Part shown: one piece after another, positions 1,018-27,612 of the stretch
How positions within the stretch are numbered: position 1 is the stretch's first letter
Layout: every line of letters starts with the position of its first letter
DNA from: Acidimicrobiia bacterium
Lineage (GTDB): Bacteria; Actinomycetota; Acidimicrobiia; Acidimicrobiales; JACDCH01
Direction: 5' to 3'
Assembly: GCA_013694495.1 (NCBI GenBank)
Contig: JACDCH010000546.1
Coordinates: forward strand, 1-44,890
DNA: 44,890 nt
Position numbers and translations under genes: made by a program
The notes under the pieces: generated by a model
What the model saw: only the letters and a program-made list of their open reading frames with translations
The model's database searches: none
Told to the model about the DNA's origin: nothing

Positions 1018-1368
1018 TCAGATGTCGAAGAGCCGCGGTGCCGCGGGGTTCGTGCGACCGATGGTTCGGCGAGGTCGGCGACCGGTCGGCTCATCGCTGC
1101 TCGCTTGCTTCGTCATCGCCTCGACGTCCGAGGTTGAGCCCGTGTCCTTGTCGGCGCGGTGGAACGAGCGCAGTCGGCCACCGGCCATCTCCTCGAGCCG
1201 GGCGACGGACACGCGGTAGAGCCGGCCCACGGGCATCGCCGGCACGATGCCTTGAGCCCCGCCGGTCGCGATGTAGAGGCGGGCCTCCAGGTAGGCCCTC
1301 GACCGGCCGATCCGCAGCCTCTCGGCCGCCTCCTCGACGGTGATGAAGTCCTCGGGCTCGTGAGCCAT
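1018..1368 (-). CDS. excisionase-type (MerR-like) HTH DNA-binding protein
   Basis: N-terminal ITVEEAAERLRIGRSRAYLEA ... LYRVSVARLEE is the typical Xis/MerR-superfamily HTH. It is divergent from an integrase gene across an AT-richer 60-90 bp spacer. Confidence 0.7.
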   Translation of the reverse strand: MAHEPEDFITVEEAAERLRIGRSRAYLEARLYIATGGAQGIVPAMPVGRLYRVSVARLEEMAGGRLRSFHRADKDTGSTSDVEAMTKQASSDEPTGRRPRRTIGRTNPAAPRLFDI

Positions 1369-1456
1369 GAGCGTCCCCCCTCGCTTGATCTTCTGAACCG
1401 CGGTAAACTACTTCTATCTACTCTAGTTTCGAATGGGTCGAGAGGGTGTGATCGGG

Positions 1457-2575
1457 ATGGCGCACATCAGAAGGGCAAGGTCAGGCCAAGGCTGGGAGGC
1501 CCGCTACCGCGACCCGCACGGCAAGGAACGAGCGAGGACCTTCAACACCAAGCGCGACGCGCAGCAGTTCATCGCCGGCGCCGAAGCGGACCTGCAGCGC
1601 GGTGACTGGCTCGACCCGAGGGTCGGGCGCATCCGCTTCGACGACTGGGCCGACGAATGGCTCGCCACTGCTGTCCACCTCAAGCCCAACACCCGGTATG
1701 GCTACGAGCGGCTGCTCGAGCGACACGTGCTGCCCGTCTTTGGCGGCAAGCGCATCGCCAACATCGAGCGCATCGACGTCCGTCGGTTCGTCTCCGACAT
1801 GACCACCGCCGGCATGGCGGCGGGCACGGTGCGCAACGCCTTCACCGTCGTGCGCAACGTGTTCAACATCGCCCTCGACTCTGGCGCGGTCAAGGCCAAC
1901 CCCTGCGCTCGGGTGAAGATGCCGCGCTCACCTCGGGCGGAGATGCTGTTCCTCGACCCGGCGCAGATCGTGGCGCTGGCTGAGGCGATCGGTGACGAGT
2001 ACGCGCTGCTCGTCAAGACCGCGGCCTACACCGGGCTGCGAGCCGGTGAGCTCCAGGCCTTGCGAGTGCGACGAGTCGACCTCGACAAGTGCAACCTCGA
2101 CGTAGTCGAGTCGCTCAGCGAGGTCGAGGGCCAGTTGATCTTCGGCGAGACCAAGACGTACTCGCGGCGCCAGGTCGGCGTCCCCGCGTCCCTTGCAGCC
2201 GAGCTGCGCTTGCACATCACGACTCGGTCACTCGGACCCGACGATCTCGTATTCGCCGGCCCCCGCGGTGGACCGATGCGCCACAACAACTTCTACAACC
2301 GCCACTTCAAGCCAGCGGTCGTGCGCGGGGCTCTGCCGGACGGCCTCCGATTTCACGACTTGAGGCATACGTGCGCCGCCCTGCTGATCTCCGAGGGCGC
2401 ACACCCGCGGGCGATCATGGAGCGCCTCGGACACTCCACCGTGCAGGTTGCCATCGACCGCTACGGCCACCTCTTCCCGCGCATCCACGCCGAGCTGACC
2501 GACTCCCTCGACAAGCTCTACCGCGGGGGGCATGACGATCCGACCTCGGCAGGTGCTACGAGCTCGGACGGTTGA
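1457..2575 (+). CDS. int: tyrosine recombinase (phage-type integrase)
   Basis: ORF 1433..2575. MAHIRRARSGQGWEARYRDPHGKERARTF is a typical N-terminus, so the start was chosen at ATG 1457. Catalytic-region motifs are present: TGLRAGEL, HDLRHTCAALLI, RLGHSTVQVAIDRYGHL. Confidence 0.9.
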   Translation: MAHIRRARSGQGWEARYRDPHGKERARTFNTKRDAQQFIAGAEADLQRGDWLDPRVGRIRFDDWADEWLATAVHLKPNTRYGYERLLERHVLPVFGGKRIANIERIDVRRFVSDMTTAGMAAGTVRNAFTVVRNVFNIALDSGAVKANPCARVKMPRSPRAEMLFLDPAQIVALAEAIGDEYALLVKTAAYTGLRAGELQALRVRRVDLDKCNLDVVESLSEVEGQLIFGETKTYSRRQVGVPASLAAELRLHITTRSLGPDDLVFAGPRGGPMRHNNFYNRHFKPAVVRGALPDGLRFHDLRHTCAALLISEGAHPRAIMERLGHSTVQVAIDRYGHLFPRIHAELTDSLDKLYRGGHDDPTSAGATSSDG

Positions 2576-3467
2576 GTTGATCTCGAAGTCCATCTCGAAG
2601 CGCATCATGGTCCATGTCGCACATGCGGCCGAGCAGTTCCGACAGTTGTCGGACGAGGTCTCCACCAGACAACGCGTTCAGTGCAGCCACCGAGACCGCA
2701 TGATGGCCTCCTGTCCGGTCGGACGAGGGCGTCTCGTCCGCGATGCGTACATCCTCAGCAATGAGAACGCCAACAAGCCGACCACCGCACTCGAGACGAA
2801 TCGCGGCGTAACTGCGGCTTCTCATCGTCATCGTCTGAACTTCATCGCGCGGCAGGTTGTATCGGCCGCATTGCTGGTCGATCCACCGGGGATTGGCGGG
2901 CGCATCGCGAGCACCAGGGTTGGACAGACGTGGCTCTTCCCAGGCGCCCTTCTCCCAGGCCTTCCCGATCACACCTTCGTCATAGGGATACTCCGCGCGA
3001 CCGGTCGTACGGTCGAACGTCGGCATAGCTGAATACCGTCCGACCAGAGCTAGCGCTGTAGCCGTATCGAGGAAGAGGCTGACTCTTCCGTTGCTGTTCA
3101 GGCCCAACTGTTCGAGGAGCTCGTGCAGCTCGGTCCTCACAAGAATCAACACCGCACGTTCCGCGTGTCTCGCGCGTCCGAGATGGGCGTCCGACTTCTC
3201 GGCTCTCTCCTGGAGCGCCCGCAGGTAGGACGTCGACAACAATCCACCAACGACAAGCACGAGGACACCGCCGATCAACAACGCCAAGGAGGTGGGGACT
3301 CTGCGCCACTCGAAGACTCGATTCTCGCGTGGCACCAAGCCCGCGACACCGAGAAGCAGAGCACCGGCCGCGCTGTATACGGCGAGCGCAACGCGAGCCG
3401 CGGCGTTCCGTCTGGGACGCTCTGGCGAAGACACGGCTCGAGCCGCACGTGAAGGAGTCGTCGCCAT
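2556..3467 (-). CDS. membrane protein with two N-terminal TM helices and a C-terminal GAF-like domain
   Basis: Two hydrophobic segments: VALAVYSAAGALLLGVAGLV and LALLIGGVLVLVVGGLL. These are followed by a GAF-like core (GRVSLFLD..., EGVIGKAWEKG..., SYAAIRLECGGRLVGVLIAED). The 3' end overlaps the convergent int gene by 20 nt. Confidence 0.6.
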   Translation of the reverse strand: MATTPSRAARAVSSPERPRRNAAARVALAVYSAAGALLLGVAGLVPRENRVFEWRRVPTSLALLIGGVLVLVVGGLLSTSYLRALQERAEKSDAHLGRARHAERAVLILVRTELHELLEQLGLNSNGRVSLFLDTATALALVGRYSAMPTFDRTTGRAEYPYDEGVIGKAWEKGAWEEPRLSNPGARDAPANPRWIDQQCGRYNLPRDEVQTMTMRSRSYAAIRLECGGRLVGVLIAEDVRIADETPSSDRTGGHHAVSVAALNALSGGDLVRQLSELLGRMCDMDHDALRDGLRDQLNRPSS

Positions 3468-3483
3468 CAGGCAACATGATGGC

Positions 3484-3753
3484 GTGGATGATGTCGACGA
3501 TCCCTCTGAACTCGAGGTAACCCCGAGTCCCGAGATTCAGATTTTCATCAACCGAGCCGTCTACGTCGTGTCACAGGTCTCGATGTCCGGCCATGAGCTC
3601 CGACACCTAGCCCATCCTCCACTGCCGACGGACGTCGACCTGTTCGTTGTCGGGGACCACGGTGCGGATCGTCTCGTGCTCAACGACGAAGTCGTCCAGC
3701 TCCGAACGGGCATGAGACTCTTCACCACGCCACGTTCGATTCTGGCTGGTTAG
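3484..3753 (+). CDS. ubiquitin-like beta-grasp protein (multiubiquitin-domain type), paralog 1, C-terminus ...RSILAG
   Basis: This is the in-frame tail of ORF 3292..3753. The upstream part overlaps the GAF gene, so GTG 3484 was taken as the start, giving 89 aa. It aligns along its length with the 4075..4344 product (IQIFINRAVYVVSQVSMSGHELRHL / FHIKIDRAEYTVTEKVMTGAELRHV; LFTTPRSILAG / FFTAPRQINPGA). Confidence 0.65.
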   Translation: MDDVDDPSELEVTPSPEIQIFINRAVYVVSQVSMSGHELRHLAHPPLPTDVDLFVVGDHGADRLVLNDEVVQLRTGMRLFTTPRSILAG

Positions 3754-3781
3754 GGACGGCGGTCGCCTCGTTCAAACGCGA

Positions 3782-3970
3782 TCAGTCGGTCAGGAGGCGC
3801 TCCGCGCGAAGCAACCTCGCACGGAGACCACGCTGAAAGTCCTGATCCAACCTCCGCGCTTCGATGTGCTCCGTAATGGCCGCCCGCACAATTTCGGAAA
3901 CTGGCAGCTCCACCACACTCGCGATCGTGTCGAGTTCTTCTGCCTGCTCGGGCGACAAGCGGATGGTCAT
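3782..3970 (-). CDS. ribbon-helix-helix (CopG/Arc-type) DNA-binding protein
   Basis: Internal ATG of ORF 3782..4054. MTIRLSPEQAEELDTIASVVELPVSEIVRAAITEHIE has the classic beta-strand plus two-helix RHH layout. It lies antisense between the two Ubl genes. Confidence 0.6.
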   Translation of the reverse strand: MTIRLSPEQAEELDTIASVVELPVSEIVRAAITEHIEARRLDQDFQRGLRARLLRAERLLTD

Positions 3971-4074
3971 GGCTTTGACGGGTTTCACAGGTGCAGTATG
4001 CGCCGTGGTGCCTCGGTGTGCAAGATCTCTGCTACCGTGATACCATTCCACCAAACCAGCACAGGAGGCCGCTC

Positions 4075-4344
4075 GTGCCAGAGACCGAGACCAAGGAGTC
4101 CGCGGAGAAGCGGCCTCACAAGTTCCACATCAAGATCGACCGAGCCGAATACACCGTGACCGAAAAGGTCATGACTGGTGCGGAACTTCGCCACGTACCC
4201 CCGATGCCGATCGGAGCTGATCGGGACCTGTTCGAGGTGATCCCTGGCAAGCCAGACCGTCTGATCGGAGACACGGACGGCGTCGAGATCCACGACGGGA
4301 TCCGATTCTTCACGGCGCCTCGCCAGATCAATCCGGGCGCCTAG
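4075..4344 (+). CDS. ubiquitin-like beta-grasp protein (multiubiquitin-domain type), paralog 2, C-terminus ...RQINPGA
   Basis: ORF 3991..4344. GTG 4075 is preceded by CAGGAGG at 4062-4068 and gives 89 aa, the same length as paralog 1. Confidence 0.7.
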   Translation: MPETETKESAEKRPHKFHIKIDRAEYTVTEKVMTGAELRHVPPMPIGADRDLFEVIPGKPDRLIGDTDGVEIHDGIRFFTAPRQINPGA

Positions 4345-4366
4345 CTCGACTACGTCGGAGACGACC

Positions 4367-4759
4367 GTGCCGCTGTTGCCGATCGACAAGGAGTACCTCG
4401 CTGAGCGCGACATCGCTCACGAGGTGCATGAGGAATCGAGCATGACGTGCGTCGTGATTCGTTCGTGGCAGCTCCCGACAGGCCTCGATCGGCCTGAGGC
4501 CGACGTGTTGGTACGGCTACCCGCCGGCTATCCAGACATCGCCCCAGACATGTGGTGGGTCGAACCAGCCTTGCGAACTGCCACCGGCCAAGTCATCCCG
4601 GCCACGGAAGCCACTGAAGTCCACCTCGGCCGCACGTGGCAACGATGGTCCCGCCACTTCGCCGCCGGGCAATGGCAGCCAGGAGTCGACCGCCTCGAGA
4701 GCTACCTCGCCCTCATTCGAGGCGAGTTCCAGCGAGCTGCAGGCGGACACGCAGCATGA
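4367..4759 (+). CDS. prokaryotic E2/UBC-like protein (Prok-E2 family E type)
   Basis: LPAGYPDIAPDMWWVEP matches the E2 YPxxPP-plus-aromatic core. The gene sits between the Ubl and E1 genes, and its stop overlaps the E1 start (ATGA at 4756-4759). Its only Cys is residue 28. Confidence 0.65.
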   Translation: MPLLPIDKEYLAERDIAHEVHEESSMTCVVIRSWQLPTGLDRPEADVLVRLPAGYPDIAPDMWWVEPALRTATGQVIPATEATEVHLGRTWQRWSRHFAAGQWQPGVDRLESYLALIRGEFQRAAGGHAA

Positions 4760-6141
4760 TGCAAGCGACACTGGTCTTGCCGAGCTGGATCGCAGTGGAC
4801 TTGACGCGCCGCGCTGGCGAAGAGCTCGAAGCCGGTGCGGTGCTGATAGCAGGAGTTGCGCGAACGGCCTCAGGCGTGCGGCTGCTCGCACGAGAGGTCG
4901 CGTGGGTGCCACCCGAGGCGTACCTGCAGCGCCGACACGACGGTCTCACGATCACGTCGAACGGATATGTCCCGGCGTTGGCTCGTGCCGAAGCGCTCGG
5001 TTCAGCCGCGATCTGGCTGCACACACATCCGGGTGTTGACGCGGACCCCTCGCCGAGCCGTCACGACGACGTCGTTGACACGGAACTGGCCGAGACGTTC
5101 AAGATCCGCACGGGCCGCGACCTCTATGGCTCGCTGGTCATCTCGCCAGCTCGTAAGCATTTCGCCTTCACAGGTAGAGGACACGATCTCGACGAGCCGT
5201 TCCGCATCGACCGAACCCTCATCGTCGGTGACAGGCTGGACCTCGTTACCGCACGCGACATAGAGGCGGCGCGCGAACTACCGCTGATCTTCGACCGGCA
5301 GGTTCGTGCCTTCGGTGGCGAAGTTCAAGAAGTGCTCGCGCAGCTGCGAGTGTCGATCGTCGGATGCGGCGGAACGGGCTCAGCCGTGGCGGAACAACTT
5401 GTTCGCCTTGGTGTCCGCTCGCTGACACTGGTTGACCATGACACGCTCAGCGACACGAACGTGACTCGCGTGTACGGCTCCTTTCCAGATCAGGTCGGAA
5501 AGAGCAAGACAGAGGTTCTTGGTGAGCACCTTCGAAGGATCGCCCCCGATCTTCAGCTTCGGACTTACTCCGCGTCGGTGCTCGACCAAGCTGTCGCGCG
5601 AGCGATTGCGGCGTCAGACGTCATCTTCGGTTGTACCGATGACAACGCTGGCCGACTCGTCCTCAGCAGAGTCGCCGCCTACTACCTCGCGACCCTTATC
5701 GACTGTGGGGTGCTGATCACCTCGCATGATGGGACGATCGAAGGCATTGACGGACGAGTCACCGTGCAATCTCCCGGTGCTGCCTGTCTCGTCTGTCGGC
5801 ATCGGATCGACATGGCACGCGCGGCGGCAGAGGTCCTCGACCCCGAAGAGCGACAGCTGCGGGAGGACGAGGGGTACGCCCCCGAGCTCGGCCGCGTCGA
5901 ACCCGCGGTCGTCACGTTCACGACGCTCGTCGCAAGCCACGCCGTTACCGAACTCTTGGAGAGGTTGGTGGGCTTCGGTCCGGAACCGGTTCCAACCGAG
6001 CTACTCCTCCGGAGCCATGAACGCGAGATCAGCACGAATGTCGCGGCGCCCGTCCCTGGTCACTTCTGTGATCCGACAAGCGGACTGCTCGGGACGGGCG
6101 ACAGCGAGCCGTTTCTTGGTCAGCTCTGGCGGTCCCCGTGA
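4756..6141 (+). CDS. JAB/JAMM metallopeptidase fused to a ThiF/E1-like adenylyltransferase
   Basis: Start re-called at the MMQATL methionine of ORF 4636..6141. JAMM motif: EAGAVL ... HTHPGVDADPSPSRHD (about 5020-5070). E1 Rossmann motif: VSIVGCGGTGSAVAEQLVRLGVRSLTLVDHD (about 5350-5440). Also CTDDNAGR and a CLVCRHR zinc-type motif. Confidence 0.9.
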   Translation: MMQATLVLPSWIAVDLTRRAGEELEAGAVLIAGVARTASGVRLLAREVAWVPPEAYLQRRHDGLTITSNGYVPALARAEALGSAAIWLHTHPGVDADPSPSRHDDVVDTELAETFKIRTGRDLYGSLVISPARKHFAFTGRGHDLDEPFRIDRTLIVGDRLDLVTARDIEAARELPLIFDRQVRAFGGEVQEVLAQLRVSIVGCGGTGSAVAEQLVRLGVRSLTLVDHDTLSDTNVTRVYGSFPDQVGKSKTEVLGEHLRRIAPDLQLRTYSASVLDQAVARAIAASDVIFGCTDDNAGRLVLSRVAAYYLATLIDCGVLITSHDGTIEGIDGRVTVQSPGAACLVCRHRIDMARAAAEVLDPEERQLREDEGYAPELGRVEPAVVTFTTLVASHAVTELLERLVGFGPEPVPTELLLRSHEREISTNVAAPVPGHFCDPTSGLLGTGDSEPFLGQLWRSP

Positions 6142-6491
6142 ACGCCCGGGGTCGCCTCCGCTGGTGGCACTGGCTGCCTCATCGTCGGTATTTCGTCGCA
6201 GCAACGGTCGAGGCGGCGGACGAGGTCCCCGAACGACTTCCACGTCGGGCAATCGTGCTCGTTGCACGCGATGATTGCGCCACATGGGTCGCATTTGATT
6301 GTCCGTGCCCCGCCCACCACCGCCTCCTGGTCAACCTCGATCCGGCGCGGTGGCCGCATTGGCGGCTTGAATCATCGCGACCGGTGAGCCTTCGCCCGAG
6401 TATCGATGTCAAGGGAGTCGACCGTCGTTGTCATTTCTGGTTGAGGTCAGGCCGCATCGAATGGACACCTGCGCGCCAGCGCATCGCATGA
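6138..6491 (+). CDS. Cys/His-rich small protein, DUF6527-like
   Basis: ATGA overlap with the E1 stop. Motifs FDCPCPAHHRLLVNL ... RCHFWLRSGRIEW. The family assignment is from my memory of proteins found next to E1/E2 genes. Confidence 0.55.
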   Translation: MNARGRLRWWHWLPHRRYFVAATVEAADEVPERLPRRAIVLVARDDCATWVAFDCPCPAHHRLLVNLDPARWPHWRLESSRPVSLRPSIDVKGVDRRCHFWLRSGRIEWTPARQRIA

Positions 6492-6492
6492 C

Positions 6493-7437
6493 GTGAAGGA
6501 GCCGTCCGTGGATGAGGGACCGACCAGCAGCGACGACGCCACAACAGCGAGTAGCGGGAACACTCCGGCGCCTGCGGTGCGAACGCCGTTGTATCGCGCG
6601 TCGAACGCGCCAAGGTACGGCCGCCAGTCGCTCATCAAGGAGATCCAAGGCAAGGAGAATCGAAAGCTGATCTGCTACGTCGCCGGTGCAGCAGCCTCGA
6701 TGACGAGGGACGACGTCTTGCCGCTGGTCGATCTGTTCCACACGGTCCCCGAAGGGTCAAACATCGACCTCATGCTTCAAACTCCAGGCGGTGACGTGGA
6801 TGCCGCCGAGAAGATGGCGTCGATGCTCCGAAAGCGCGTGGGGCCAGAGTCGGAGTTCCGAGTCATCGTCCCCGACTACGCGAAGAGCGCGGGCACGCTG
6901 ATTGCGCTCGCGAGCGACACGATCCTGATGAGCGACAGCTCCGAGCTTGGACCAGTCGACCCTCAACTCCCGTTACCCGATGGCAGCGGGCGAGCGAACC
7001 TCCGACCGGTGCAGTCGTACGTCGACGGCCACGACGCGCTCGTCGAGCTGGTCAACCAAGAGCCGAACGCAGCTGGTTATCGGCTCATGCTTGACAAGTA
7101 CGACCCCACCACCATCGACCTGTGCAGAAAGGTGCTCGAACGATCCACCCGTCTGGCGGAGGAGTTGCTCAAGGGAGGCATGTTCCGTCCGCCGCGTGGC
7201 GGCAACTTCACGGGTGTTGCGCGCGACCTGTCAGACAACAAGAAATGGCTGTGGCACGGCGCACCGATCGATCACAAGGAAGCTGAGCGACTTGGCCTTG
7301 CCGTCACCTATCTCGCCCCGCGTGACCCTAACTGGGAGCAGTACTGGAACCTGTACTGCGAACAGCGACTCGCGCTGAACGACTCCAACACAGCGAAACT
7401 GTTTGAATCCGACTACGTCTCACTCGTGATCGGCTAG
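6493..7437 (+). CDS. ClpP/SppA-fold serine protease (SDH-type Clp-fold proteinase)
   Basis: GTG start 2 nt after the previous stop. IDLMLQTPGGDVDAAEKMASMLR ... VIVPDYAKSAGTLIALASDTILMSDSSELGPVDPQ is the characteristic Clp-fold serine peptidase core, with the putative nucleophile in KSAGT at about 6883-6897. Confidence 0.75.
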   Translation: MKEPSVDEGPTSSDDATTASSGNTPAPAVRTPLYRASNAPRYGRQSLIKEIQGKENRKLICYVAGAAASMTRDDVLPLVDLFHTVPEGSNIDLMLQTPGGDVDAAEKMASMLRKRVGPESEFRVIVPDYAKSAGTLIALASDTILMSDSSELGPVDPQLPLPDGSGRANLRPVQSYVDGHDALVELVNQEPNAAGYRLMLDKYDPTTIDLCRKVLERSTRLAEELLKGGMFRPPRGGNFTGVARDLSDNKKWLWHGAPIDHKEAERLGLAVTYLAPRDPNWEQYWNLYCEQRLALNDSNTAKLFESDYVSLVIG

Positions 7438-7674
7438 CGACTTCGTGATCCCACGTACGCGGTGCTCGCCGACTTCAAGTACCGCGTGCGCGGGCGGTTG
7501 GTGATGAGCGGGATCGCCAACGGAGCCCTCGCACGAGGCCGAGTACCCTCGATCCTCGTGCGTTCGATCCGTGCTGCCGAGAGCTGCGAAGTGCCGCTTC
7601 ATGCTGCACCGTCCGCGGGATTTTCGCGGGATCGCGCTTCCGAGCCCGGTCGGCGAAGGCCCACCGAGAGCCCC

Positions 7675-7701
7675 GAAAACCGCATCTGACCTGCGGTTTT
7701 C
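7675..7701. terminator. A-tract / 10-bp stem / T-tract hairpin (possible bidirectional intrinsic terminator) 10 nt upstream of the tRNA
   Basis: GAAAACCGCA-TCTGACC-TGCGGTTTTC is a perfect 10-bp stem with a 7-nt loop. The GC core is only 6 bp, so its strength is uncertain. Confidence 0.35.
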
Positions 7702-7710
7702 CACTATCCC

Positions 7711-7786
7711 GCCCTCGTAGCTCAGGGGATAGAGCATCGGTTTCCTAAACCGTGTGTCGCATGTTCGAATCATGCCGAGGGCGCCA
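7711..7786 (+). tRNA. tRNA-Arg (anticodon CCT), CCA encoded
   Basis: Folded by hand. Acceptor GCCCTCG/CGAGGGC, D-arm GCTC-AGGGGATA-GAGC, anticodon loop TTCCTAA, T-arm GCATG-TTCGAAT-CATGC, discriminator G then CCA. Confidence 0.9.
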
Positions 7787-7895
7787 CTAAAAGACCTGGC
7801 CAAAGGCCATTTCTGGGCGACAGATCCAGCCCGCCTCGACGACTTGCCCATCCAAATCGCCACTCTTGCCCATCCGATATGCAAGGATGACGGGC

Positions 7896-9053
7896 ATGGC
7901 CGGATCGATCCGCCAGCGAGGGAAGCAGTCGTGGGAGGTCCGATCCTTCGCCGGCAAAGACCCCGCGACTGGCAAGAAGCAGTACGTCACCAAGACGATC
8001 CGAGGTAGCCGCAAGGAAGCGGAGGTCGCCCTCGGCCGCATGCTCGGTGAGATCGAGGACGGCCAGCACACCGCGCGCGCCGGCACGGTCGGTGATCTGT
8101 GCGAGCGCTGGTTCGCCCAGGCCGCGCCCGACCTCTCACCGTCGGTCGCACCCGAGTACCGCCGACTGCTCGACAACCGCATCCTCCCCCGCTGGGGCTC
8201 AACCCCGCTGCGCCGAGTGCGCACCGCGGACCTCGACCTCTGGTACTCCGAGCTCCGCCGGAGCGGCGGTCTCAAGAGCGGCGGCCCGCTCGCCCCCAAC
8301 ACGGTGACGCGCATCCACGCCGTGCTCCGGCGCGCGCTGGCCCAGGGCGTGAAGTGGGGCTGGCTCACCACGAATCCCGCGGCGAACGCATCTCCGCCCC
8401 GCGCCCACAAGCAGCAGCTCAGCCTGCCCGACCCGTCCGACGTCGCTCGGCTCATCGAGGCGGCGGCCGACGTCAATCCGTCGCTGCCGACCTACTTCCG
8501 CCTTGCGGCGGCGACGGGAGCCCGCCGCGGTGAGATGTGCGCGCTGCGGTGGAAGCACGTCGACTTCGAGCGACGCCGCCTCACCATTGCCCGCGGCATC
8601 GTCGAGGCCGGGGGCAAGCTCATCGACAAGGACACGAAGACCCACCAGGTGCGAACCGTGACGCTCGACGAGGAGACGACGGCGATCGTCCTGGCCCACC
8701 ATGATCGGTGCGCCGATCTCGCGGAGACGTGCGGCACGACCTTGTCGCCGATCTCGCATCTGTTCTCGCACGAGGTGGACTTCTCGAAGCCATGGCGACC
8801 CGGCTACGCCACCCTCGCCTTCGGCCGCCTACGAGACGAGCTCGGGCTGGAAGGCGTGAAGCTCCACCATCTCCGCCACTTCAGCGCCACCCAGCTCCTG
8901 TCACTCGGTATCGACGTTCGCACGGTGAGCGGCCGCCTCGGTCACGCCAACGCTTCGACGACTCTCGACATCTACGCCCAGTTCATGACGCAGGCCGACG
9001 AGCGGGCCGCGAATGTGCTCGGCGCGCTGCTCAAGACACCCGACCCGTCCTGA
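7896..9053 (+). CDS. int: tyrosine recombinase (integrase) of the tRNA-Arg island
   Basis: ORF 7866..9053, with the start taken at MAGSIRQRGKQSWEVR. Motifs: ATGARRGEMCAL, LHHLRHFSATQLL, RLGHANASTTLDIYAQF. Confidence 0.9.
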   Translation: MAGSIRQRGKQSWEVRSFAGKDPATGKKQYVTKTIRGSRKEAEVALGRMLGEIEDGQHTARAGTVGDLCERWFAQAAPDLSPSVAPEYRRLLDNRILPRWGSTPLRRVRTADLDLWYSELRRSGGLKSGGPLAPNTVTRIHAVLRRALAQGVKWGWLTTNPAANASPPRAHKQQLSLPDPSDVARLIEAAADVNPSLPTYFRLAAATGARRGEMCALRWKHVDFERRRLTIARGIVEAGGKLIDKDTKTHQVRTVTLDEETTAIVLAHHDRCADLAETCGTTLSPISHLFSHEVDFSKPWRPGYATLAFGRLRDELGLEGVKLHHLRHFSATQLLSLGIDVRTVSGRLGHANASTTLDIYAQFMTQADERAANVLGALLKTPDPS

Positions 9054-9059
9054 GTCCGG

Positions 9060-11321
9060 TCACGCCGGTGCGGGCGACGCCGGTTCCTCGATGCCAAGGC
9101 GCCGCCGTTCCGACGCGAGGATCAGCGCCTCGGCCTGCGTCTCGTTCACGATCTTCTGCACGTCCTGGAGGTCAGAGATGTCGACGGAGTCCGGCGTGGC
9201 GTCCTTGACCGCGCTCCCCAGCACGAACTGCTCGATGAGGTGCTGCTTGCCGGCGAGCACGGCGAGCATCCGCTGGTCGACGGTGTCCTCGAGGAGGAGC
9301 CGGTGCACCTGGACCCGCCGCACCTGGCCCATGCGGTGGCAGCGGGCGACCGCTTGTGCTTCGACGGTCGGCTTCCACTGCGGCTCGCAGAGGATGACGA
9401 CCGATGCGGCCTGGATGTTGAGTCCGACGCCGCCCGCCTCGATCTGGGAAGTGAGCACTCCACCGCCCGGCCGCGCGCCCAACGCATCGACAAGCCGCTG
9501 GCGCTCGGCCGGCGGTGTGCTCCCCGTGAGCGGGCCGTAGACGGCGCCGGGGAGCGCGACGTTGGCGGCTCGGGTCACCCGGTCGAGCACATCCCGGAAG
9601 TAGGAGAACACCACCACCTTGAGGCCCTCCTCGCTGGCCTCCTCGAGGATGTCGACCAGGCGGGCCGTCTTGGCCGAGTGCTCGATCTCCAACACCGCAG
9701 CCGGGCCACCGTCGGGGATGCTCGTGTAGGCGGCCCGGCGCATCGTCTGGAAGGCCTGGGCCTCGACGGCCGCTCGGTAGGTGCGGAGATCCTCGGGTGT
9801 GGGATCCACCCAGTCGAGCGAAGGGATCTGCTCGGGCAGCTCGTTGAGCACGTCGATCTGGTTGCGGCGGAGGTACGCAGGGGCGACGGCGGTCTGGAAC
9901 GCCACCGGTCCTGCGAGCGCCGTCGCGGCGTTGACCCGGACGGCGACCTCCGGTTGGAGGTGGTCGATCAGGTTGCGGAACTCCTCCACGCGGTTCTCCA
10001 TCGGGGTTCCGGTTAGGAACAGCACCCGCTCGGCGCCGTCGGCCCACCGGGCGACGGCCTGTGAGCGCAGGGTCGCGGGGTTCTTGACGTAGTGAGCCTC
10101 GTCGACGACCAACATGGCGAGCGACGAGTCCGCTCCATCGGCGTTCGGATCGGGATCGGCAGGATCGAACCGGCGGAGCCCGTCGAAGGTGGTGATGGCC
10201 ACGCCGCCTTGGCGGAGCCACGATCGGTGTGCCCGGTCCCGCTCGGCGCCATGGAGCACGTGGGCCGCGAGCTCTGTGTGACGGTGGATCTCGCTTCGCC
10301 AGTTCGCGACCACGCTGGCGGGGCACACCACCATCGCCCGCTGCTTCCCCGCCGCCCGGAGGTGGCAGAGAGCGGCCAGCGCCTCGACTGTCTTGCCCAG
10401 GCCCATCTCGTCGCCGAGGATCGTCCGCCGCTGCACCAACGCGTACTTGGCACCGAAGGCCTGGTAACCGCGAAGGCTGGCCTTGAGGAAGGACAGGTCG
10501 AGAGCCAGGGCCTGCACCCGCTCCACGATCTCGGCCGGGAGATGGCCCCGATTCGCCTCCTCGCCCGTGCCCTCGACGATCTCGCCGAGCACGCCGAGGA
10601 GGTGGGCCGCGTTGTGCTCGAAGTCGATCCACACCTCCTCGTGGGCCCGCGGCCGGTTGATCTCGTGCAGCGAAGTGGCGAGGTACTGCCGGAACTGGAC
10701 CACCGACGGGTCGGCCAGGATTCGGTCGAGCTGCTCGACGGCGACGTTCGCCGCCGTCTTCGCGGCGGCGCGCACGAAGATGCGCCGCAGCCAGGGACGA
10801 GCTGCCGGCTCAGTGTCGACAGCCAGCGGTGACGCCGTGGCGCGCAGCCATTGGCTCATCGCTTGCGACTCGTCGACCGCCCGGGCGGCGAGGTCGTAGC
10901 GACGCAGCGAGACCAGCACGTCGGTCTGCGCCGCCGGCCGTGCGACGACGTCGAAGTGGACGCGGACCGCGGCTTCGGTGGCTGCAAGCACCTGGCGGGC
11001 CGCGGCGAGCGCCTGGGTCGCGGTGGCGTCACCGACGCCCGGCACCGCTCGGAGGCGAGCGGCAGTGGCGCCGAGGAGCTGATCGACGGTGCGATACCCC
11101 GTTCGTTCGAGCGCGTCGAGCCGCAGACCCTTGGCCGTCTCGCGCAGCCGGGCCACGGGCACCTGCGCCATCTGCCCCAACGCAACCGCCCGCCGGATGG
11201 CCGACACCTGTGCGCGGGCGACGTCGGCCACGCCGGCGGGCAGCGATTCGAGGGTGCCGACCTCGGCGAGGAGTGCCTCGTGTTCGGCCAGCACCTGTCG
11301 CGCTGATCGTGTGTCCGCCAT
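9060..11321 (-). CDS. SNF2-family helicase (DrmD-like), N-terminal helix-hairpin-helix-like region
   Basis: ORF 9060..11474 with the start re-called at MADTRSARQ (ATG 11321). SNF2_N motifs: LRGYQAFGAKYAL, LGDEMGLGKTVEAL, LVVDEAHYVKN. Helicase_C motifs: LTSQIEAGGVGLNIQAASVVILCEPQWKP, RCHRMGQ. Also VPGVGDATATQALAAA. Confidence 0.9.
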   Translation of the reverse strand: MADTRSARQVLAEHEALLAEVGTLESLPAGVADVARAQVSAIRRAVALGQMAQVPVARLRETAKGLRLDALERTGYRTVDQLLGATAARLRAVPGVGDATATQALAAARQVLAATEAAVRVHFDVVARPAAQTDVLVSLRRYDLAARAVDESQAMSQWLRATASPLAVDTEPAARPWLRRIFVRAAAKTAANVAVEQLDRILADPSVVQFRQYLATSLHEINRPRAHEEVWIDFEHNAAHLLGVLGEIVEGTGEEANRGHLPAEIVERVQALALDLSFLKASLRGYQAFGAKYALVQRRTILGDEMGLGKTVEALAALCHLRAAGKQRAMVVCPASVVANWRSEIHRHTELAAHVLHGAERDRAHRSWLRQGGVAITTFDGLRRFDPADPDPNADGADSSLAMLVVDEAHYVKNPATLRSQAVARWADGAERVLFLTGTPMENRVEEFRNLIDHLQPEVAVRVNAATALAGPVAFQTAVAPAYLRRNQIDVLNELPEQIPSLDWVDPTPEDLRTYRAAVEAQAFQTMRRAAYTSIPDGGPAAVLEIEHSAKTARLVDILEEASEEGLKVVVFSYFRDVLDRVTRAANVALPGAVYGPLTGSTPPAERQRLVDALGARPGGGVLTSQIEAGGVGLNIQAASVVILCEPQWKPTVEAQAVARCHRMGQVRRVQVHRLLLEDTVDQRMLAVLAGKQHLIEQFVLGSAVKDATPDSVDISDLQDVQKIVNETQAEALILASERRRLGIEEPASPAPA

Positions 11322-11340
11322 CGCAGCAAGGTATCGGCCC

Positions 11341-11374
11341 CCTGTGACCGGCTTCCGGCTCACCCTGTCACAGG
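11341..11374. promoter_or_regulatory. 8-bp inverted repeat in the divergent promoter region between the two helicase genes
   Basis: CCTGTGAC (11341-11348) and GTCACAGG (11367-11374), within the 110-bp spacer between starts 11321 (-) and 11432 (+). Confidence 0.3.
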
Positions 11375-11431
11375 CCTCACGTAGGGTGACCACGGCGTCG
11401 AGCGAGTGCCGGCGGTGAACGGAAGGACACG

Positions 11432-14400
11432 ATGATGGCTGGGGACCCGCGCCCGGCAGCTGGTGGCGGAACACGCCTCGAAGACCTGACGGTCGGCGCG
11501 CTCGTCCACGGCCTGTCCACCTCGGGCCCCGTCACAGTGGTCGCCACCAAGTGGCACGGGTCGGTCGCGCTCACCTTGACCTGTCGGGACGCATCGGGCC
11601 ACGTGAGCGAGCGGGTGCTCTACCGCGACGACGAGTCCGGTCTGAGGGTCGAGAGCTCCACCCGGGGGTGGTCGTTCGACGCCGACGGCGATCTGTTCCG
11701 CCTGGCCGCCGAGGCGCGCCGCATCCAGCTCGCCCATCTGTTCGACCCGATGCTGGCGATCTCGCTGTCGCAGGTCGATCCGCTGCCGCATCAGATCCAG
11801 GCCGTCTACGGCGAGCTGCTGCCACGCCAGCCCCTCCGCTACCTCCTCGCCGACGACCCCGGTGCCGGCAAGACGATCATGGCCGGCCTCTACATCAAGG
11901 AGCTGATCCTCCGTGGAGACCTGGCCCGGTGCCTCATCGTCGCCCCAGGCGGCTTGGTGGGGCAGTGGCAAGAGGAGCTCTACGACAAGTTCGACCTGAC
12001 GTTCGAGATCCTCACCCGCGAGCTCATCGACTCATCGCTGACGGCCAACCCCTTCGCCGAGAAGAACCTTCTCCTCACCCGCCTCGACCACCTGTCTCGC
12101 AACGAGGACCTCCAAGCCAAGCTGGCCGAGACCGACTGGGACCTGATCGTCGTCGATGAGGCCCACCGGATGGCTGCGCATTGGTTCGGGGGCGAGGTCA
12201 AGGAGACCCGTCGCTATCAGCTCGGCAAGATGCTCGGTGGTATCACGCGCAACCTGCTCTTGATGACGGCCACGCCCCATGCCGGTAAGGAGGAGGACTT
12301 CCAGCTGTTCCTCGCGTTGCTGGACGGTGACCGGTTCGAGGGGCGGTTCCGCGACGGGGTGCACACCGTCGACGTCTCGGACCTCATGCGCCGGATGATC
12401 AAGGAGAAGCTGCTGCGGATGGACGGGCGCCCGCTCTTCCCCGAGCGGATCGCCTCGACCGTTCCCTATCCGCTCTCGCCGCTCGAACAGGCGCTCTACG
12501 ACGAAGTCACGAGGTACGTGACCGACGAGATGAACCGCGCCGATCGGCTCGCCGCCGAAGGTGAGGGCCGGCGAGGGAACCGGGTCGGCTTCGCCCTCAC
12601 CGTCCTCCAGCGGCGCCTCGCGTCGAGCCCCGAGGCGATCTACCAGTCTCTGCGCCGCCGCCGAGTCCGACTCGAGAAGGATCTCGTCGATGCTCGGAAC
12701 CGGGCCCGCATCGCCTCGCTCCCGTCCGCCGAAGCCCGCATCGAGCGCCTCCTCGCCGACCTGGAACGGCCGGCTCGAGGGACCGACGACGACGACGACT
12801 TCGAGGACCGCATCGACGACCTCGCCGACGATGAGCGCGAGGAGGTCGAGGAGGAGCTGGTCGACTCCGCTTCCGCAGCCCGCACCGCGCAGGAGCTCGC
12901 GCTCGAGATCCAGACCCTCACTCGGCTCGAGGAGCTGGCCAACCAAGTCCGCAAGACCGGAACCGATCGCAAGTGGACCGAGCTCCTCTCGATCCTCGAC
13001 GAGAAGCCCGAGATGCGCCACGCCGACGGCTCGCGCCGCAAGCTCATCGTCTTCACCGAGCACCGCGACACCCTGACGTACCTCGTCGACCGGCTCCGCG
13101 ACCGGTTGGGCAAGCCTGAGGCCGTTGTCACGATCCACGGCGGCACAGCGCGCGAGCAGCGCCGGGCCATCCAGGAGCGCTTCACTCAGGACAAGGACTG
13201 TCTGATCCTTGTCGCCACCGACGCCGCCGGCGAGGGCCTCAACCTTCAGCGCGCCCACCTGCTCGTCAACTACGACCTGCCCTGGAACCCGAACCGGATC
13301 GAGCAGCGCTTCGGCCGCGTCCACCGCATCGGCCAGACCGAGGTCTGCCACATGTGGAACCTCGTCGCCGAGGACACCAGAGAAGGCCAGGTTTACCTGA
13401 CCCTTCTCGCCAAGCTGGAGGAGCAGCGCAAGGCGCTGTCCGGCCAGGTGTTCGATGTCCTCGGCGAGGCATTCCGTGACGCGCCACTTCGGGATCTGCT
13501 GCTCCGAGCGATTCGCTACGGAGACCAGCCCGAGGTCCGCGACGCCATCAACCAAGTGATCGACGAGAAGGTCGGTGACGGACTCGCCGAGCTGATCGAT
13601 GCCCATGCGCTCGCGTCGGACGTTCTCGGCGAGACCCAGGTCGAGCGGATCAGGACACAGATGGAAGAGGCCGAGGCTCGTCGGCTGCAGCCGCACTACA
13701 TCCGATCGTTCTTCCTCGAAGCCTTCGACCTGCTCGGCGGTCGGATCGTGGAGCGTGAGAAGGGCCGCTTCGAGATCAAGCACGTCCCGCAGGAGCTGCG
13801 GGATCGAGACCGCCAGATCGGGCTCGGGGCACCGGTGCTCCGAGCCTACGAACGCGTCTGCTTTGACAAGGAGCAGGTCCGGGTGGTGGGCAAGCCGATC
13901 GCCGAGCTCCTCGCGCCGGGACACCCTCTCCTCGACGCCATCCTCGATGTCACCCTCGAACGGCATCGTCGAGTACTCGCCCAAGGTGCGGTGCTCGTTG
14001 ACGATCGAGACGCAGGTCTCGACGCCCGAGTGTTGGTCCTTCTCGAACATGCCGTCGCCGACGGCCGCACAGACGGACGAGGAGCCGACCGACGAGTCAT
14101 CTCCCGCCAAATGCAGTTCATCGACCTCCACGAGGACGGCACGCACACAGCCAGCGATGCCGCGCCCTACCTCGATCTGCGGCCTGCAACCACGGGTGAG
14201 CGTGCGGTCGCCGAGCAACTCCTCACGAGCGGGGGATGGCTCGCGGGCGATCTAGAGGCTGCCGCATTCGACGTCGCCGTCGGCGAGGCGATCCCCACCC
14301 ACCTCGCACGCACTCGCCTCCGCACGACCGCCCGCACCCAGAAGGTGCGATCAGCGGTCTACGAGCGACTCACCCGGGAGATCAACCACTGGGATCACCG

Positions 14401-15028
14401 GGCGAACGAGCTCGCAGCACAGGTCGAGAGCGGCAAGCAGCCGAAGATGAACCCCGAGCGCGCCCGCCAACGAGCGGACGACCTCTCCGGCCGCCTCAAG
14501 CGGCGCATGGACGACCTCGACCGCCAAGAAGAGCTGCACGCCCAGCCTCCGACGGTGACCGGCGCCGCGCTCGTCCTCCCGGCTGGCCTACTCGGACCCG
14601 GCGACGGTCCAGCCGCACCGCCCGCCCACGCGAGGGAGACCGCCCGTGTCGAGCGTCGAGCAGTTGACGCGGTTCTGTCAACAGAGGAGCGACTTGGCCG
14701 CGATCCCCGCGAGATGCCCCACAACAACCCGGGCTACGACATCGCCAGCACTACGCACGACCGCCACCTCATCTTCATCGAGGTGAAGGGTCGCGTGGCC
14801 GGCGCCGAGACGGTCACGATCACCCGTAACGAGATTCTCACCAGCCTCAACACCGACCGCTGGGTGCTCGCACTCGTCGAGGTCGCCGACGCCGACGGGC
14901 AGCCGCGCGACCATGTCCGCTACCTCCACCACCCGTTCCGAGGACAGCTCGATGACCTCGGCTTCAAGGAGACCAGCCGCACCTTCCCGTGGCGTGGACT
15001 CTGGGACGCCGCAGGGGAGCCGGCATGA
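11432..15028 (+). CDS. SNF2/DEAH-type helicase with C-terminal DUF3883 (PD-(D/E)xK-like) domain
   Basis: Helicase motifs: LLADDPGAGKTIMAG, IVVDEAHRM, LLMTATPH, VATDAAGEGLNLQ, NPNRIEQRFGRVHRIGQ. The C-terminal NNPGYDIAS...HLIFIEVKGR...ITRNE (about 14720-14830) is the DUF3883 signature as I remember it. Confidence 0.9.
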   Translation: MMAGDPRPAAGGGTRLEDLTVGALVHGLSTSGPVTVVATKWHGSVALTLTCRDASGHVSERVLYRDDESGLRVESSTRGWSFDADGDLFRLAAEARRIQLAHLFDPMLAISLSQVDPLPHQIQAVYGELLPRQPLRYLLADDPGAGKTIMAGLYIKELILRGDLARCLIVAPGGLVGQWQEELYDKFDLTFEILTRELIDSSLTANPFAEKNLLLTRLDHLSRNEDLQAKLAETDWDLIVVDEAHRMAAHWFGGEVKETRRYQLGKMLGGITRNLLLMTATPHAGKEEDFQLFLALLDGDRFEGRFRDGVHTVDVSDLMRRMIKEKLLRMDGRPLFPERIASTVPYPLSPLEQALYDEVTRYVTDEMNRADRLAAEGEGRRGNRVGFALTVLQRRLASSPEAIYQSLRRRRVRLEKDLVDARNRARIASLPSAEARIERLLADLERPARGTDDDDDFEDRIDDLADDEREEVEEELVDSASAARTAQELALEIQTLTRLEELANQVRKTGTDRKWTELLSILDEKPEMRHADGSRRKLIVFTEHRDTLTYLVDRLRDRLGKPEAVVTIHGGTAREQRRAIQERFTQDKDCLILVATDAAGEGLNLQRAHLLVNYDLPWNPNRIEQRFGRVHRIGQTEVCHMWNLVAEDTREGQVYLTLLAKLEEQRKALSGQVFDVLGEAFRDAPLRDLLLRAIRYGDQPEVRDAINQVIDEKVGDGLAELIDAHALASDVLGETQVERIRTQMEEAEARRLQPHYIRSFFLEAFDLLGGRIVEREKGRFEIKHVPQELRDRDRQIGLGAPVLRAYERVCFDKEQVRVVGKPIAELLAPGHPLLDAILDVTLERHRRVLAQGAVLVDDRDAGLDARVLVLLEHAVADGRTDGRGADRRVISRQMQFIDLHEDGTHTASDAAPYLDLRPATTGERAVAEQLLTSGGWLAGDLEAAAFDVAVGEAIPTHLARTRLRTTARTQKVRSAVYERLTREINHWDHRANELAAQVESGKQPKMNPERARQRADDLSGRLKRRMDDLDRQEELHAQPPTVTGAALVLPAGLLGPGDGPAAPPAHARETARVERRAVDAVLSTEERLGRDPREMPHNNPGYDIASTTHDRHLIFIEVKGRVAGAETVTITRNEILTSLNTDRWVLALVEVADADGQPRDHVRYLHHPFRGQLDDLGFKETSRTFPWRGLWDAAGEPA

Positions 15029-15270
15029 CCACCTGGCCGAAGTCGTGGCTCGCCGGTTCACCGGGTGCCGCATGCCCGACGTGCGGCGAACGATCAGGCC
15101 GTCCCATCCTGATGGGCATGCCGAGCGGCGAGGTGTTCGAGGCCCTCGACGCCGGTGCGATCGACATCGAGCTAGGCGGCTGCTGCATCAGCGACGACGA
15201 CCCGACCCACCGCTGCGCCGCCTGCGGTGTGTCGTTCGGTGGGCGGCCGGCAGCTCAGGAGCGAACGTGA
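15025..15270 (+). CDS. 81-aa zinc-ribbon protein
   Basis: ATGA overlap with the helicase stop and GTGA overlap with the methyltransferase start. Contains CPTCG ... CAACG (two CxxC pairs). It is the in-frame tail of ORF 14989..15270. Confidence 0.55.
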   Translation: MTTWPKSWLAGSPGAACPTCGERSGRPILMGMPSGEVFEALDAGAIDIELGGCCISDDDPTHRCAACGVSFGGRPAAQERT

Positions 15271-17988: not shown

Positions 17989-18303
17989 ATGAGTATCTCG
18001 CTGCAGCGCGCCGAGGAACTGCTCCTGCGAGCGGTGGGGATTCTGGCCACCGACCCGGGCGAGGTCCGCGCCCGGCTTCACCACGCTCGCGAGGACCTGT
18101 TCGAACTCGACGAGATCGCCGCCCAGACTGAGCCGGACGGCGCCCCGTACCTCGCGGAGCTGAACGCTCGCATCGCCGCAGTGCGCTCAACCCTCGCTGG
18201 TGGGGGCGTCATGGACCTGAGCGAGGACCAGGGCGTCGAGTGCGCGAAGGAAGTTCTCGACATCTACCTCAGCGTCCGAGCATTTCGGAAGGACGTTCCC
18301 TAA
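17989..18303 (+). CDS. 104-aa helical hypothetical protein
   Basis: ATG 17989 is preceded by GGAGGGGG. Its stop overlaps the next start (TAATG at 18301-18305). Codon bias fits. No family recognised. Confidence 0.5.
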   Translation: MSISLQRAEELLLRAVGILATDPGEVRARLHHAREDLFELDEIAAQTEPDGAPYLAELNARIAAVRSTLAGGGVMDLSEDQGVECAKEVLDIYLSVRAFRKDVP

Positions 18304-26918: not shown

Positions 26919-26981
26919 GGGACGCCCCCAGGATCCCGCGGGGTCCGCCGCAGGCGGAACCTGCAAGTCTTTGAAGGCTTG

Positions 26982-27383: not shown

Positions 27384-27425
27384 GGGTCCTCCTTCGGGTG
27401 GCAGACGACCACCGTGCGGGATGGC

Positions 27426-27612
27426 ACTCACCCGAGCGCTCACGTTTGGGCTCACCCTCGCGAGATTTCTCAGAATTTCTAGGGAGTGAGCCCCTCCCCA
27501 CTCACGCGCGCTCACGTTTCCACTCACGTTCTCCGGGATTCCGAGGGGTGAGCCCGACTTGGGCTCACGCTCACTCACGTATTGGCTCACCCGCGCTCAC
27601 GTTTGGTCTCAC
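27426..27612. repeat. dense field of (G/A)CTCAC(G) direct repeats, including three copies of GCGCTCACGTTT
   Basis: About 13 same-strand CTCAC hexamers plus 2 inverted GTGAGC in 187 bp. GCGCTCACGTTTGGGCTCAC at 27436-27455, GCGCTCACGTTTCCACTCAC at 27508-27527 and GCGCTCACGTTTGGTCTCAC at 27593-27612. The field lies in the divergent spacer between 27383 (-) and 27710 (+). Confidence 0.8.

Follow-up and report, generated by a model that had tools for sequence, protein, structure and literature searches.

A cassette of eight genes occupying positions 2556–7437 of a 44,890 nt stretch of DNA (the whole of which is referred to as the window), taken from contig JACDCH010000546.1 of an Acidimicrobiia metagenome-assembled genome (MAG; GCA_013694495.1), is probably a Type I-like Bub (formerly "6E/DUF6527") protein-conjugation operon that lies on horizontally acquired DNA and carries two accessory modules. 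The genes encode, in order, a protein with two transmembrane (2TM) helices and a GAF domain (2TM-GAF; minus strand), the ubiquitin-like (Ubl) protein Ubl1 (plus), a ribbon-helix-helix (RHH) protein (minus), a second Ubl (Ubl2), an E2-like protein (BubB), a JAB-E1 fusion (BubCD), a DUF6527 protein (BubE) and an SDH-type ClpP-fold serine protease (all plus). This set had been proposed in an earlier reading of the DNA that used no database searches (the sequence-only reading), and its order, orientation and coordinates were borne out by the listing of open reading frames (ORFs). Apart from this listing, the analysis drew on Pfam, NCBIfam and PADLOC matches, PDB sequence matches, AlphaFold2 models and synteny tables. 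A total of 3386 BubCD homologues were found at E ≤ 1e-10 among 8000 candidates scored, and a one-genome-per-species scan returned 253 BubCD relatives, 80 of which were tabulated together with 4 others using home-made hidden Markov models. Overall, 85 BubCD-anchored and 9 GAF-anchored loci (numbered with the prefix L) were tabulated, and synteny counts refer to the 79 related loci having both flanks, termed complete loci below.

Type I Bub operons comprise BubAB (Ubl-E2), BubCD (JAB-E1) and BubE (DUF6527), and in the Citrobacter system conjugation proceeds via a Tyr in the crossover loop of E1 and then via a Ser of E2 (with His and Asp), the tail of the Ubl is cleaved by the JAB domain, and DUF6527 is a novel Ser-His peptidase (10.1101/2024.11.21.623953). 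The best PDB match of the window's BubCD (4756..6141, plus strand; ThiF 1.2e-37; Prok-JAB 6e-4, below the gathering score) is Citrobacter BubCD (9ea4, 2e-29), aligned over both domains at residues 21–409, and that of BubB (4367..4759, plus strand; Pfam Prok-E2_E 7.2e-38) is Citrobacter BubB (9eae_C, 3.5e-15), in support of the Bub assignment made in the sequence-only reading. Pfam profiles, the check suggested with that reading, support the Ubl, E2, E1, DUF6527 and SDH assignments above gathering scores, and the JAMM and E1 Rossmann motifs that it had named (HTHPGVDADPSPSRHD and GCGGTGSAVAEQL) are found in the JAB-E1 translation. Among 29 BubCD homologues, E25, H89, H91, D104, R181, GxGGTGS, D295/D296, C344/C347 and Y374 are invariant; the JAMM residues E25/H89/H91/D104 align with those of Citrobacter BubCD, and Y374 (EGYAP), in the crossover loop, has as its aligned Citrobacter counterpart Y370, the Tyr of 'ERGY'. 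Close to this loop, Cys is invariant only in the CxxC pair C344/C347, which together with H436/C438 presumably form a structural zinc site, as in ThiF/MoeB-type enzymes. In BubB, QRWSRH is aligned residue for residue with the Citrobacter protein (S333/H335) and PDMWW aligns with Citrobacter D299, and both PDMWW and WQRWSRH are invariant in 82 E2 sequences. The putative oxyester-type residues, namely Tyr374 of E1 and Ser95-x-His97 with Asp61 of E2, are thus retained. In BubE (6138..6491, plus strand; PF20137 1.1e-16), which is assigned as a Ser-His peptidase with a Cys/His metal cluster, C55, P56, S88, C98 and H99 are invariant in 79 sequences, and C57 and H61 are conserved at ≥90%. A PADLOC search with the eight cassette proteins returned only generic E1-E2 (CBASS Cap2-type) models matching the adenylation domain, the 2023 library being without a Bub model.

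The BubA of the cassette is Ubl2 (4075..4344, plus strand; Pfam Multi_ubiq 5.2e-8), which starts at GTG 4075 with AGGAGG 6 nt upstream. It ends in ...RFFTAPRQINPG-A, that is, in INPG plus one residue, and the Ubls of ~80 loci share RFFTAPxxINPG followed by a variable tail of 0–25 residues; because the tail residues come after the Gly, Ubl2, a class B Ubl, is regarded as a pre-protein that requires trimming. The Ubl2 stop codon (TAG 4342–4344) and the E2 start (GTG 4367) lie in different frames, and there is accordingly no BubAB fusion. Separately encoded Ubls had been listed as an unusual feature of the window, but 83 of 84 related Ubl ORFs stand free of the E2 gene, which makes separate genes normal in this clade, and Ubl and E2 are likewise unfused in the four-gene operon of Synechocystis pSYSX. 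The Bub literature also treats the Ubl-E2 fusion as 'when present', and thus allows unfused forms, and in the passages covered here of the description of the '6e' operons by Iyer, Burroughs and Aravind (2006; PMC1779556), the fusion is limited to 'some species', so that unfused forms have been known since 2006.

Upstream of Ubl2 and divergent from it lies the gene for a CopG/RelB-like RHH protein (3782..3970, minus strand; start ATG 3970; Pfam RHH_1 3.8e-5 and DUF6290; NCBIfam RelB_antitoxin 1.9e-5, below cut-off), which is presumed to be the repressor of the operon. Regulators of the CapW/BrxR, CapH+CapP or CapK+CapS types are frequent, though not obligatory, upstream of Bub operons; the window has none of these, the CopG-like RHH gene standing in their place, and CapH+CapP occurs in sister loci. 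An RHH gene is found in a like position and orientation in 61 of the 79 complete loci, and the succession RHH, Ubl, E2, JAB-E1, BubE and SDH protease is the standard layout of the clade (60 loci). As for the others, seven loci combine an upstream CapP-like Peptidase_M78 gene (with a helix-turn-helix (HTH) gene where examined) with an SDH protease after BubE, two have the protease after BubE and no recognised regulator, six have M78 or no regulator and only a dCTP-deaminase homologue after BubE, and four have various regulators and neither gene downstream, although one of these four (L044) carries an SDH gene upstream. BubCD loci are hosted by Actinomycetota, Alpha-, Beta-, Gamma- and Deltaproteobacteria, Acidobacteriota, Chloroflexota, Planctomycetota, Nitrospirota and Spirochaetia, and also by plasmids. 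The loci on plasmid pA of Phenylobacterium sp. LH3H17 (NZ_CP101284.1), in Kribbella sp. NPDC002412 and in an Acidimicrobiia MAG (L001) agree with the window in the six genes, their order and their overlaps, with BubCD 53–71% identical and the SDH protease up to 85% identical; unlike the window, they lack the TM-GAF and Ubl1 pair. RefSeq labels the SDH gene of plasmid pA 'hypothetical protein', a label that is frequent among the six-gene relatives. The novelty that had been claimed for the architecture therefore stands in part only: a near-identical six-gene core is common and annotated in RefSeq, but it comes without GAF and Ubl1, and none of its members proved to be functionally characterised in the literature searched.

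The SDH-type protease gene (6493..7437, with a start perhaps at 6508; plus strand; Pfam SDH_protease 6.6e-20) is present in 69 of the 79 complete loci, in Actinomycetota, Proteobacteria, Acidobacteriota, Chloroflexota, Planctomycetota and on plasmids, so that the coexistence of a JAB domain and a serine protease, which had also been thought unusual, is the norm of the clade. The sequence-only reading had further equated this enzyme with the new serine-protease family of Bub; the published family is DUF6527/BubE, and hence the cassette encodes three peptidases. The match to PF01972 (71.7 bits, cut-off 31.3) spans residues 75–159 only, and that to NF047768 (Clp_like_SDH; 1.6e-23) reaches 83.5 bits, below the cut-off of 250. 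Residues S132 (AKSAGT), D156 (GPVDPQ) and H255 are invariant in 44 sequences, and from this triad the protein is predicted to be an active Ser-Asp-His enzyme. In an AlphaFold2 model with a predicted local distance difference test (pLDDT) value of 90, the N-terminal half resembles ClpP, SppA and NfeD (1510-N), and a structural search of the PDB with the model gave no match for the C-terminal helical half; the enzyme belongs to a subfamily that has diverged and whose C-terminal domain is unmatched. A full-text literature search for the names of the SDH protease family found nothing relevant. The protease also matches PHROG phrog_11747 (6e-43) and, weakly, head-maturation proteases, and homologues that are 26–29% identical occur in a Shewanella Mu-like phage, a Gordonia phage and Porphyromonas phages (MZ568827.1, MW601219.1), where they are annotated as 'serine protease' or 'hypothetical'; an identity as prohead protease was considered and is unsupported by the genomic context.

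The close coupling of the last four genes that had been described is correct for the ATGA overlap between E2 and JAB-E1, whereas the overlap between JAB-E1 and BubE is GTGA, and the 1 nt gap between BubE and the protease exists only if the latter starts at GTG 6493. With the alternative start at GTG 6508, which is preceded by a GAAGGAG ribosome-binding site and agrees with the 309-aa call of NCBI, the gap is 16 nt. This junction (6491–6506) and the region of the divergent GAF and Ubl1 starts (3447–3462) have a 16-nt sequence in common, ACGTGAAGGAGNCGTC, with a strong Shine-Dalgarno motif in it and 15/16 positions identical; its recurrence at two sites of the cassette may be due to chance or reflect a common translation signal. 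A scan for promoters and terminators across 2400–7800 gave nothing useful.

The SDH protease is read here, at low to moderate confidence, as part of the downstream output of the system, either acting on Ubl conjugates or under their control, and not as a housekeeping neighbour. It could instead be a regulator that cleaves the RHH protein in the way that CapP cleaves CapH, resulting in signal-dependent or feed-forward de-repression of the operon, an explanation that we consider unlikely but worth keeping in view. Among complete loci, RHH never occurs without the SDH protease (61/61), loci devoid of both carry the CapH (HTH) and CapP (Peptidase_M78) repressor/protease pair instead, and the BubCD tree shows four or more separate branches on which RHH and SDH have been lost jointly. 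Against these associations stand the seven loci in which CapH+CapP regulators replace RHH and the SDH protease is nevertheless present, together with the two SDH loci that have no recognised regulator; these nine loci indicate that the protease has a function independent of RHH and argue against an exclusively regulatory role. In addition, the SDH gene closes the operon on its 3′ side, in translational linkage with BubE and not beside RHH, and its product bears a large conserved C-terminal domain. An obligate RHH+SDH regulatory pair was considered as well; it is weakened by the same seven CapH/CapP loci, and is retained here in the form of the regulatory explanation just described.

The position of the SDH gene immediately 3′ of the deconjugase BubE, on the other hand, would suit a third Ubl peptidase, either an enzyme that processes the variable tails or a second deconjugase. 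The 0–25-residue tails of the clade's Ubl pre-proteins would offer it a substrate, and among the solved structures closest in fold are SppA and NfeD-type proteases, trimmers of specific C-terminal or membrane substrates. Yet loci without the SDH protease (L007, L018, L023) have Ubl tails just as long, and the Citrobacter JAB domain already performs the cleavage of the Ubl tail, so that this role appears distinctly improbable. No ClpP-fold enzyme is known to act as an isopeptidase, which also counts against it. The view of the SDH protease as an output component is therefore kept in what follows.

The 3′ end of the sister operons bears on this question. A homologue, 510–545 aa long, of the dCTP deaminase known from anti-phage defence (dCMP_cyt_deam_1 domain; PADLOC dCTPase 8e-135) is encoded on the same strand in 12 loci, directly after BubE in six of them (L023, L049 and L069 having an overlap of 4 nt), after the SDH protease in four, and after the protease and a second E2-like ORF in two. 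The latter two are Sphingomonadales loci, in which the second Prok-E2_E-like ORF, at 10650–11003 of L036 and 10632–10988 of L043, lies between the SDH protease and the deaminase homologue. The possibility that protease and deaminase are strict either-or occupants of a single effector slot was rejected, as six loci have both in tandem, and this placement implies that the 3′ end of the Bub operon is a modular accessory region. The linked deaminase supports a defence or stress context.

The second accessory module comprises the two genes at the left of the cassette. Ubl1 (3484..3753, plus strand; Pfam Multi_ubiq 3.2e-7, above the gathering score) starts either at GTG 3484 or at ATC 3466 after GAAGGAG, and is 37.5% identical to Ubl2. 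The divergently oriented 2TM-GAF gene (2556..3467, minus strand) encodes a protein with hydrophobic segments at ~22–46 and ~55–85, and both helices are kept in homologues; because the first transmembrane helix is conserved, the long form is favoured over the 243-aa call of NCBI. Its Pfam match to GAF (PF01590) is weak (E 0.007; 17.3 bits, below the gathering cut-off of 22.4). An AlphaFold2 model (pLDDT 75, built from a 4-sequence alignment) contains two N-terminal transmembrane helices and a long helix followed by a fold that is matched best in the PDB by GAF domains (E 3.5e-5, probability 1.0, template-modelling score ≤0.71 on the target). The protein had appeared rare in a word-based search, which found 3 relatives; this was an artefact of search sensitivity, since an exhaustive HMMER profile search gave 717 cluster representatives at E ≤ 1e-10. 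Two scans of metagenome_contigs and one of viral_contigs yielded no more TM-GAF loci.

Seven of eight sampled GAF homologues adjoin Ubl-E2-JAB/E1(-BubE) operons (L085–L093), each divergently paired with a Multi_ubiq protein, and the eighth (L094) has no Bub genes nearby; the membrane GAF partner pointed out in the sequence-only reading is thus borne out by its relatives. The GAF-adjacent Ubls end in ...P-R/V-x-I-x-[A/M]-G, which takes the form SILAG (...TPRSILAG-stop) in the window and SIQAG, AITAG, TILAG, AIMAG, RILAG, AILMG or SIVAG elsewhere, while the operon's own Ubl ends in I-[N/I/T]-P-G. The earlier description of two Ubl paralogues consequently holds as to the number of genes, but these are not simple paralogues, as Ubl1 belongs to a separate class (class A) that travels with the TM-GAF gene. 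The pair is located directly upstream of the second Ubl in L087–L089, upstream of a small Phd/YefM-like repressor in L090 and L091, a plan that the window shares with RHH as the repressor, and downstream of BubE in L092 and L093. The class A Ubl gene and the gene for the membrane GAF protein beside it, found in a cassette with two Ubl genes, form one recurrent divergent accessory module. Like the window, the TM-GAF-linked Bub operons (L085 and L087–L093, from metagenome contigs and one MAG assembly) carry the divergent 2TM-GAF/class A Ubl pair; they differ in that the retrieved stretches contain no SDH protease, several contigs ending within or just past the E1 gene, in that those with a repressor have one of the Phd/YefM-like kind and not RHH, and in their more distant BubCD. 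One of these contigs (L085, a 5.6 kb JGI metagenome contig) bears two Bub operons, one linked to TM-GAF and one regulated by CapH+CapP, with an AbiEii-domain gene between them.

The GAF/Ubl1 pair is present in none of the 84 other BubCD-anchored loci, and no locus but the window, out of 85 BubCD-anchored and 9 GAF-anchored ones, has this module together with RHH and the protease. The uniqueness of the window in this respect is what would be expected if the pair had been left behind when another Bub operon, of GAF type, recombined with one of RHH type, and were now independent or decaying, with no working link to its neighbours. The BubCD and SDH protease of the window are closest to those of RHH-type loci without GAF (71% and 85%, respectively, for L001), and the two adjacent operons of the JGI contig indicate that such juxtapositions happen. 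Nevertheless, both the GAF and Ubl1 ORFs are intact, the terminal Gly of Ubl1 is kept, and the same pair stands upstream of a Phd/YefM-like repressor and a Ubl-E2-E1 operon in L090 and L091; because these two loci match the layout of the window, the arrangement is recurrent rather than a one-off accident, and a non-functional remnant seems rather improbable. A recurrent accessory module thus remains the preferred reading of the pair.

Comparison with described systems places the cassette nearest to the Type I Bub operon of Citrobacter sp. RHBSTW-00271 (9ea4, 9eae; 10.1101/2024.11.21.623953), with which it shares a JAB-E1 having a crossover Tyr and no catalytic Cys, a Prok-E2_E protein with Ser-x-His and Asp, a Multiubiquitin-family Ubl that needs trimming to its Gly end, DUF6527, and a site within a mobile element close to a tRNA gene. 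The identity between the two is only about 25–30%, and they differ in several respects. Ubl and E2 are separate genes in the window and a BubAB fusion in Citrobacter; the Ubl has one beta-grasp domain in the former and three in the latter; the E1 of the window contains a CxxC/HxC Cys-His cluster (the presumed zinc site) that is absent from Citrobacter; the regulator is RHH, versus CapW, CapH+CapP or CapK+CapS in Bub; and the SDH-type ClpP-fold protease, the second Ubl and the 2TM-GAF protein are additional to the Citrobacter complement. As far as the passages covered of PMC1779556 (Table 1) extend, the '6e' operons share a polyUbl or solo Ubl, a Cys-less 'inactive' E2-like protein, JAB-E1 and the metal-binding protein Y (= DUF6527) with the window, and the same passages describe neither a ClpP-like protease nor a GAF protein, a second Ubl or an RHH gene. 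Bil and Type II CBASS (Cap2/Cap3) likewise combine E1, E2 and JAB conjugation machinery in defence islands, but Bil and Cap2 employ catalytic cysteines, the Bil E1 has the composition IAD-AAD-CYS, CBASS conjugates CD-NTase, and both lack DUF6527. The window differs from Bil in its single adenylation domain fused to JAB, the lack of a catalytic Cys and a Prok-E2_E with Ser.

The cassette is flanked on its left by the tyrosine integrase gene Int1 (1433..2575, plus strand; Pfam Phage_integrase 5.7e-19, Phage_int_SAM_3 and Phage_int_M). A G+C content of 0.61–0.64 over positions 2500–8000, compared with 0.67–0.74 for most of the window, confirms that the dip noticed in the sequence-only reading is genuine, although milder than its spot counts (55–58% against 63–78%) had implied, and this low-GC stretch adjoining an integrase supports the horizontal acquisition of the cassette that had been proposed. 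Signs of mobility are therefore the flanking integrase, the G+C dip and the occurrence of relatives on plasmids. A small excisionase-like HTH protein (1018..1368, minus strand; NCBIfam TIGR01764 'excise' E 8.6e-5, below cut-off), encoded upstream of and divergently from the integrase, is a possible Xis of the cassette-bearing element, to which this sub-threshold match weakly points.

On the right, the cassette region is limited by tRNA-Arg(CCT) (7711..7786, plus strand; ARAGORN and Rfam), the 3′ half of which (7742–7784) is repeated 31.5 kb downstream at 39241–39283 (43 nt, 86% identical). This repeat was considered as a boundary of the Bub element and rejected, as it belongs to the neighbouring island: it marks a second integrated island at ~7787–39283, of which the tRNA is the attL. 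The island opens with its own integrase (7866–9053), and the Bub cassette lies outside it, 5′ of the tRNA. Within the island are a DrmD/DpdE-like SNF2 helicase (9060–11474; PADLOC DrmD 5e-163) and a full Hma candidate defence system consisting of HmaA (11432–15028), HmaB (DUF1156 methylase; 14913–17966) and HmaC (HEPN and DUF499 ATPase; 18240–21635), for all three of which the PADLOC E-value is 0. A TrwC relaxase with an AAA_30 helicase (3e-81) within the 23484–26966 / 28388–35286 region suggests a mobilisable or conjugative element. Beside the relaxase is a four-gene block on the minus strand, the last gene of which weakly matches JetD/DUF2399 (4e-7), the other three having no Pfam or PADLOC match; the block is possibly a Wadjet-like system that has diverged. 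At 27436–27641, just inside or upstream of ORF 27398–28150, there are four to five direct ~26-nt repeats (GCGCTCACGTTTGGGCTCAC...), spaced by 22–85 nt, that resemble iterons or operators. Towards the right-hand end of the window, GC-rich 15-nt-periodic repeats (CCGCCCACGACCGCACCG...) at 43147–44201, within long overlapping ORFs, probably encode a Pro/Thr/Ala-rich low-complexity region.

Several points weigh against a Bub operon with two functional accessory modules on an acquired element. In the core, the Ser/His spacing of BubE (S88...C98-H99) is unlike that of Citrobacter (S92...C99..H102), and the equivalence of the two is putative; no phage protection has been demonstrated for the published Bub operons, and the literature searched contained no functionally characterised member of the six-gene clade. 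As to the protease, some lineages lack it (six loci with the deaminase only, four with neither gene downstream), its ability to co-occur with the deaminase means that the two are not simple alternatives for one 'effector slot', and the presence of SDH in all 61 RHH loci (60 downstream, L044 upstream) fits a regulatory protease equally. As to the other module, the GAF assignment is of moderate strength, with the Pfam score below threshold and a pLDDT of 75 from four sequences, and the division of the Ubls into classes A and B depends mainly on the C-terminal motif and synteny, whole-sequence scores separating Ubl1 weakly (138 versus 123). Finally, a repeat search found no att repeats above chance bounding an Int1-Bub element.

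For the core, homology to the biochemically studied Citrobacter system allows a mechanism to be proposed with good confidence. The RHH protein would repress the operon; once expressed, Ubl2 would be made with one residue past its Gly, which the JAB domain of BubCD would remove, and the E1 domain would then adenylate this Gly and accept Ubl2 as an oxyester on Tyr374 of the crossover loop. Ubl2 would be passed to Ser95 of BubB and from there to lysines of targets, and the conjugates would be stripped by BubE (Ser88/His99). The SDH protease, translationally linked to BubE, might act on Ubl conjugates or be governed by them. Ubl1, which ends at its Gly and would require no trimming, may be a second substrate of the same E1 and E2, and the membrane GAF protein, as a candidate effector or sensor in the membrane, might be controlled by Ubl1 conjugation or detect it; for this part our confidence is low to moderate. 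A fully two-output Bub system, in which the SDH protease recognises Ubl2-tagged proteins, perhaps by its conserved C-terminal helical domain, and degrades them, and the Ubl1 tag switches the 2TM-GAF effector, is a speculative extension that we think improbable as it stands.

The core and the six-gene layout are known and common. The ClpP-fold protease, the deaminase, the TM-GAF/class A Ubl module and the combination of protease and module were not found in the Bub preprints searched, although Table S1, the published 2026 version and Burroughs et al. (2009, 2011) may list the SDH protease, the GAF protein and the deaminase. Whereas the Bub literature covers Ubl, E2, E1, BubE and upstream regulators, the present clade adds a near-constant sixth gene for a predicted active ClpP-fold protease. 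Should the accessory genes be no more than neighbours, the cassette would add an ordinary new representative to the Bub family; otherwise, they are concrete candidates for the outputs or regulators of Bub and provide testable leads. A two-output system of the kind outlined above, if true, would amount to a 'tag and destroy' pathway in bacteria that uses a ubiquitin-like tag and depends on neither Pup nor the proteasome, and a ClpP-like protease wired to a Ubl tag would bear on the origin of ubiquitin-dependent proteolysis.

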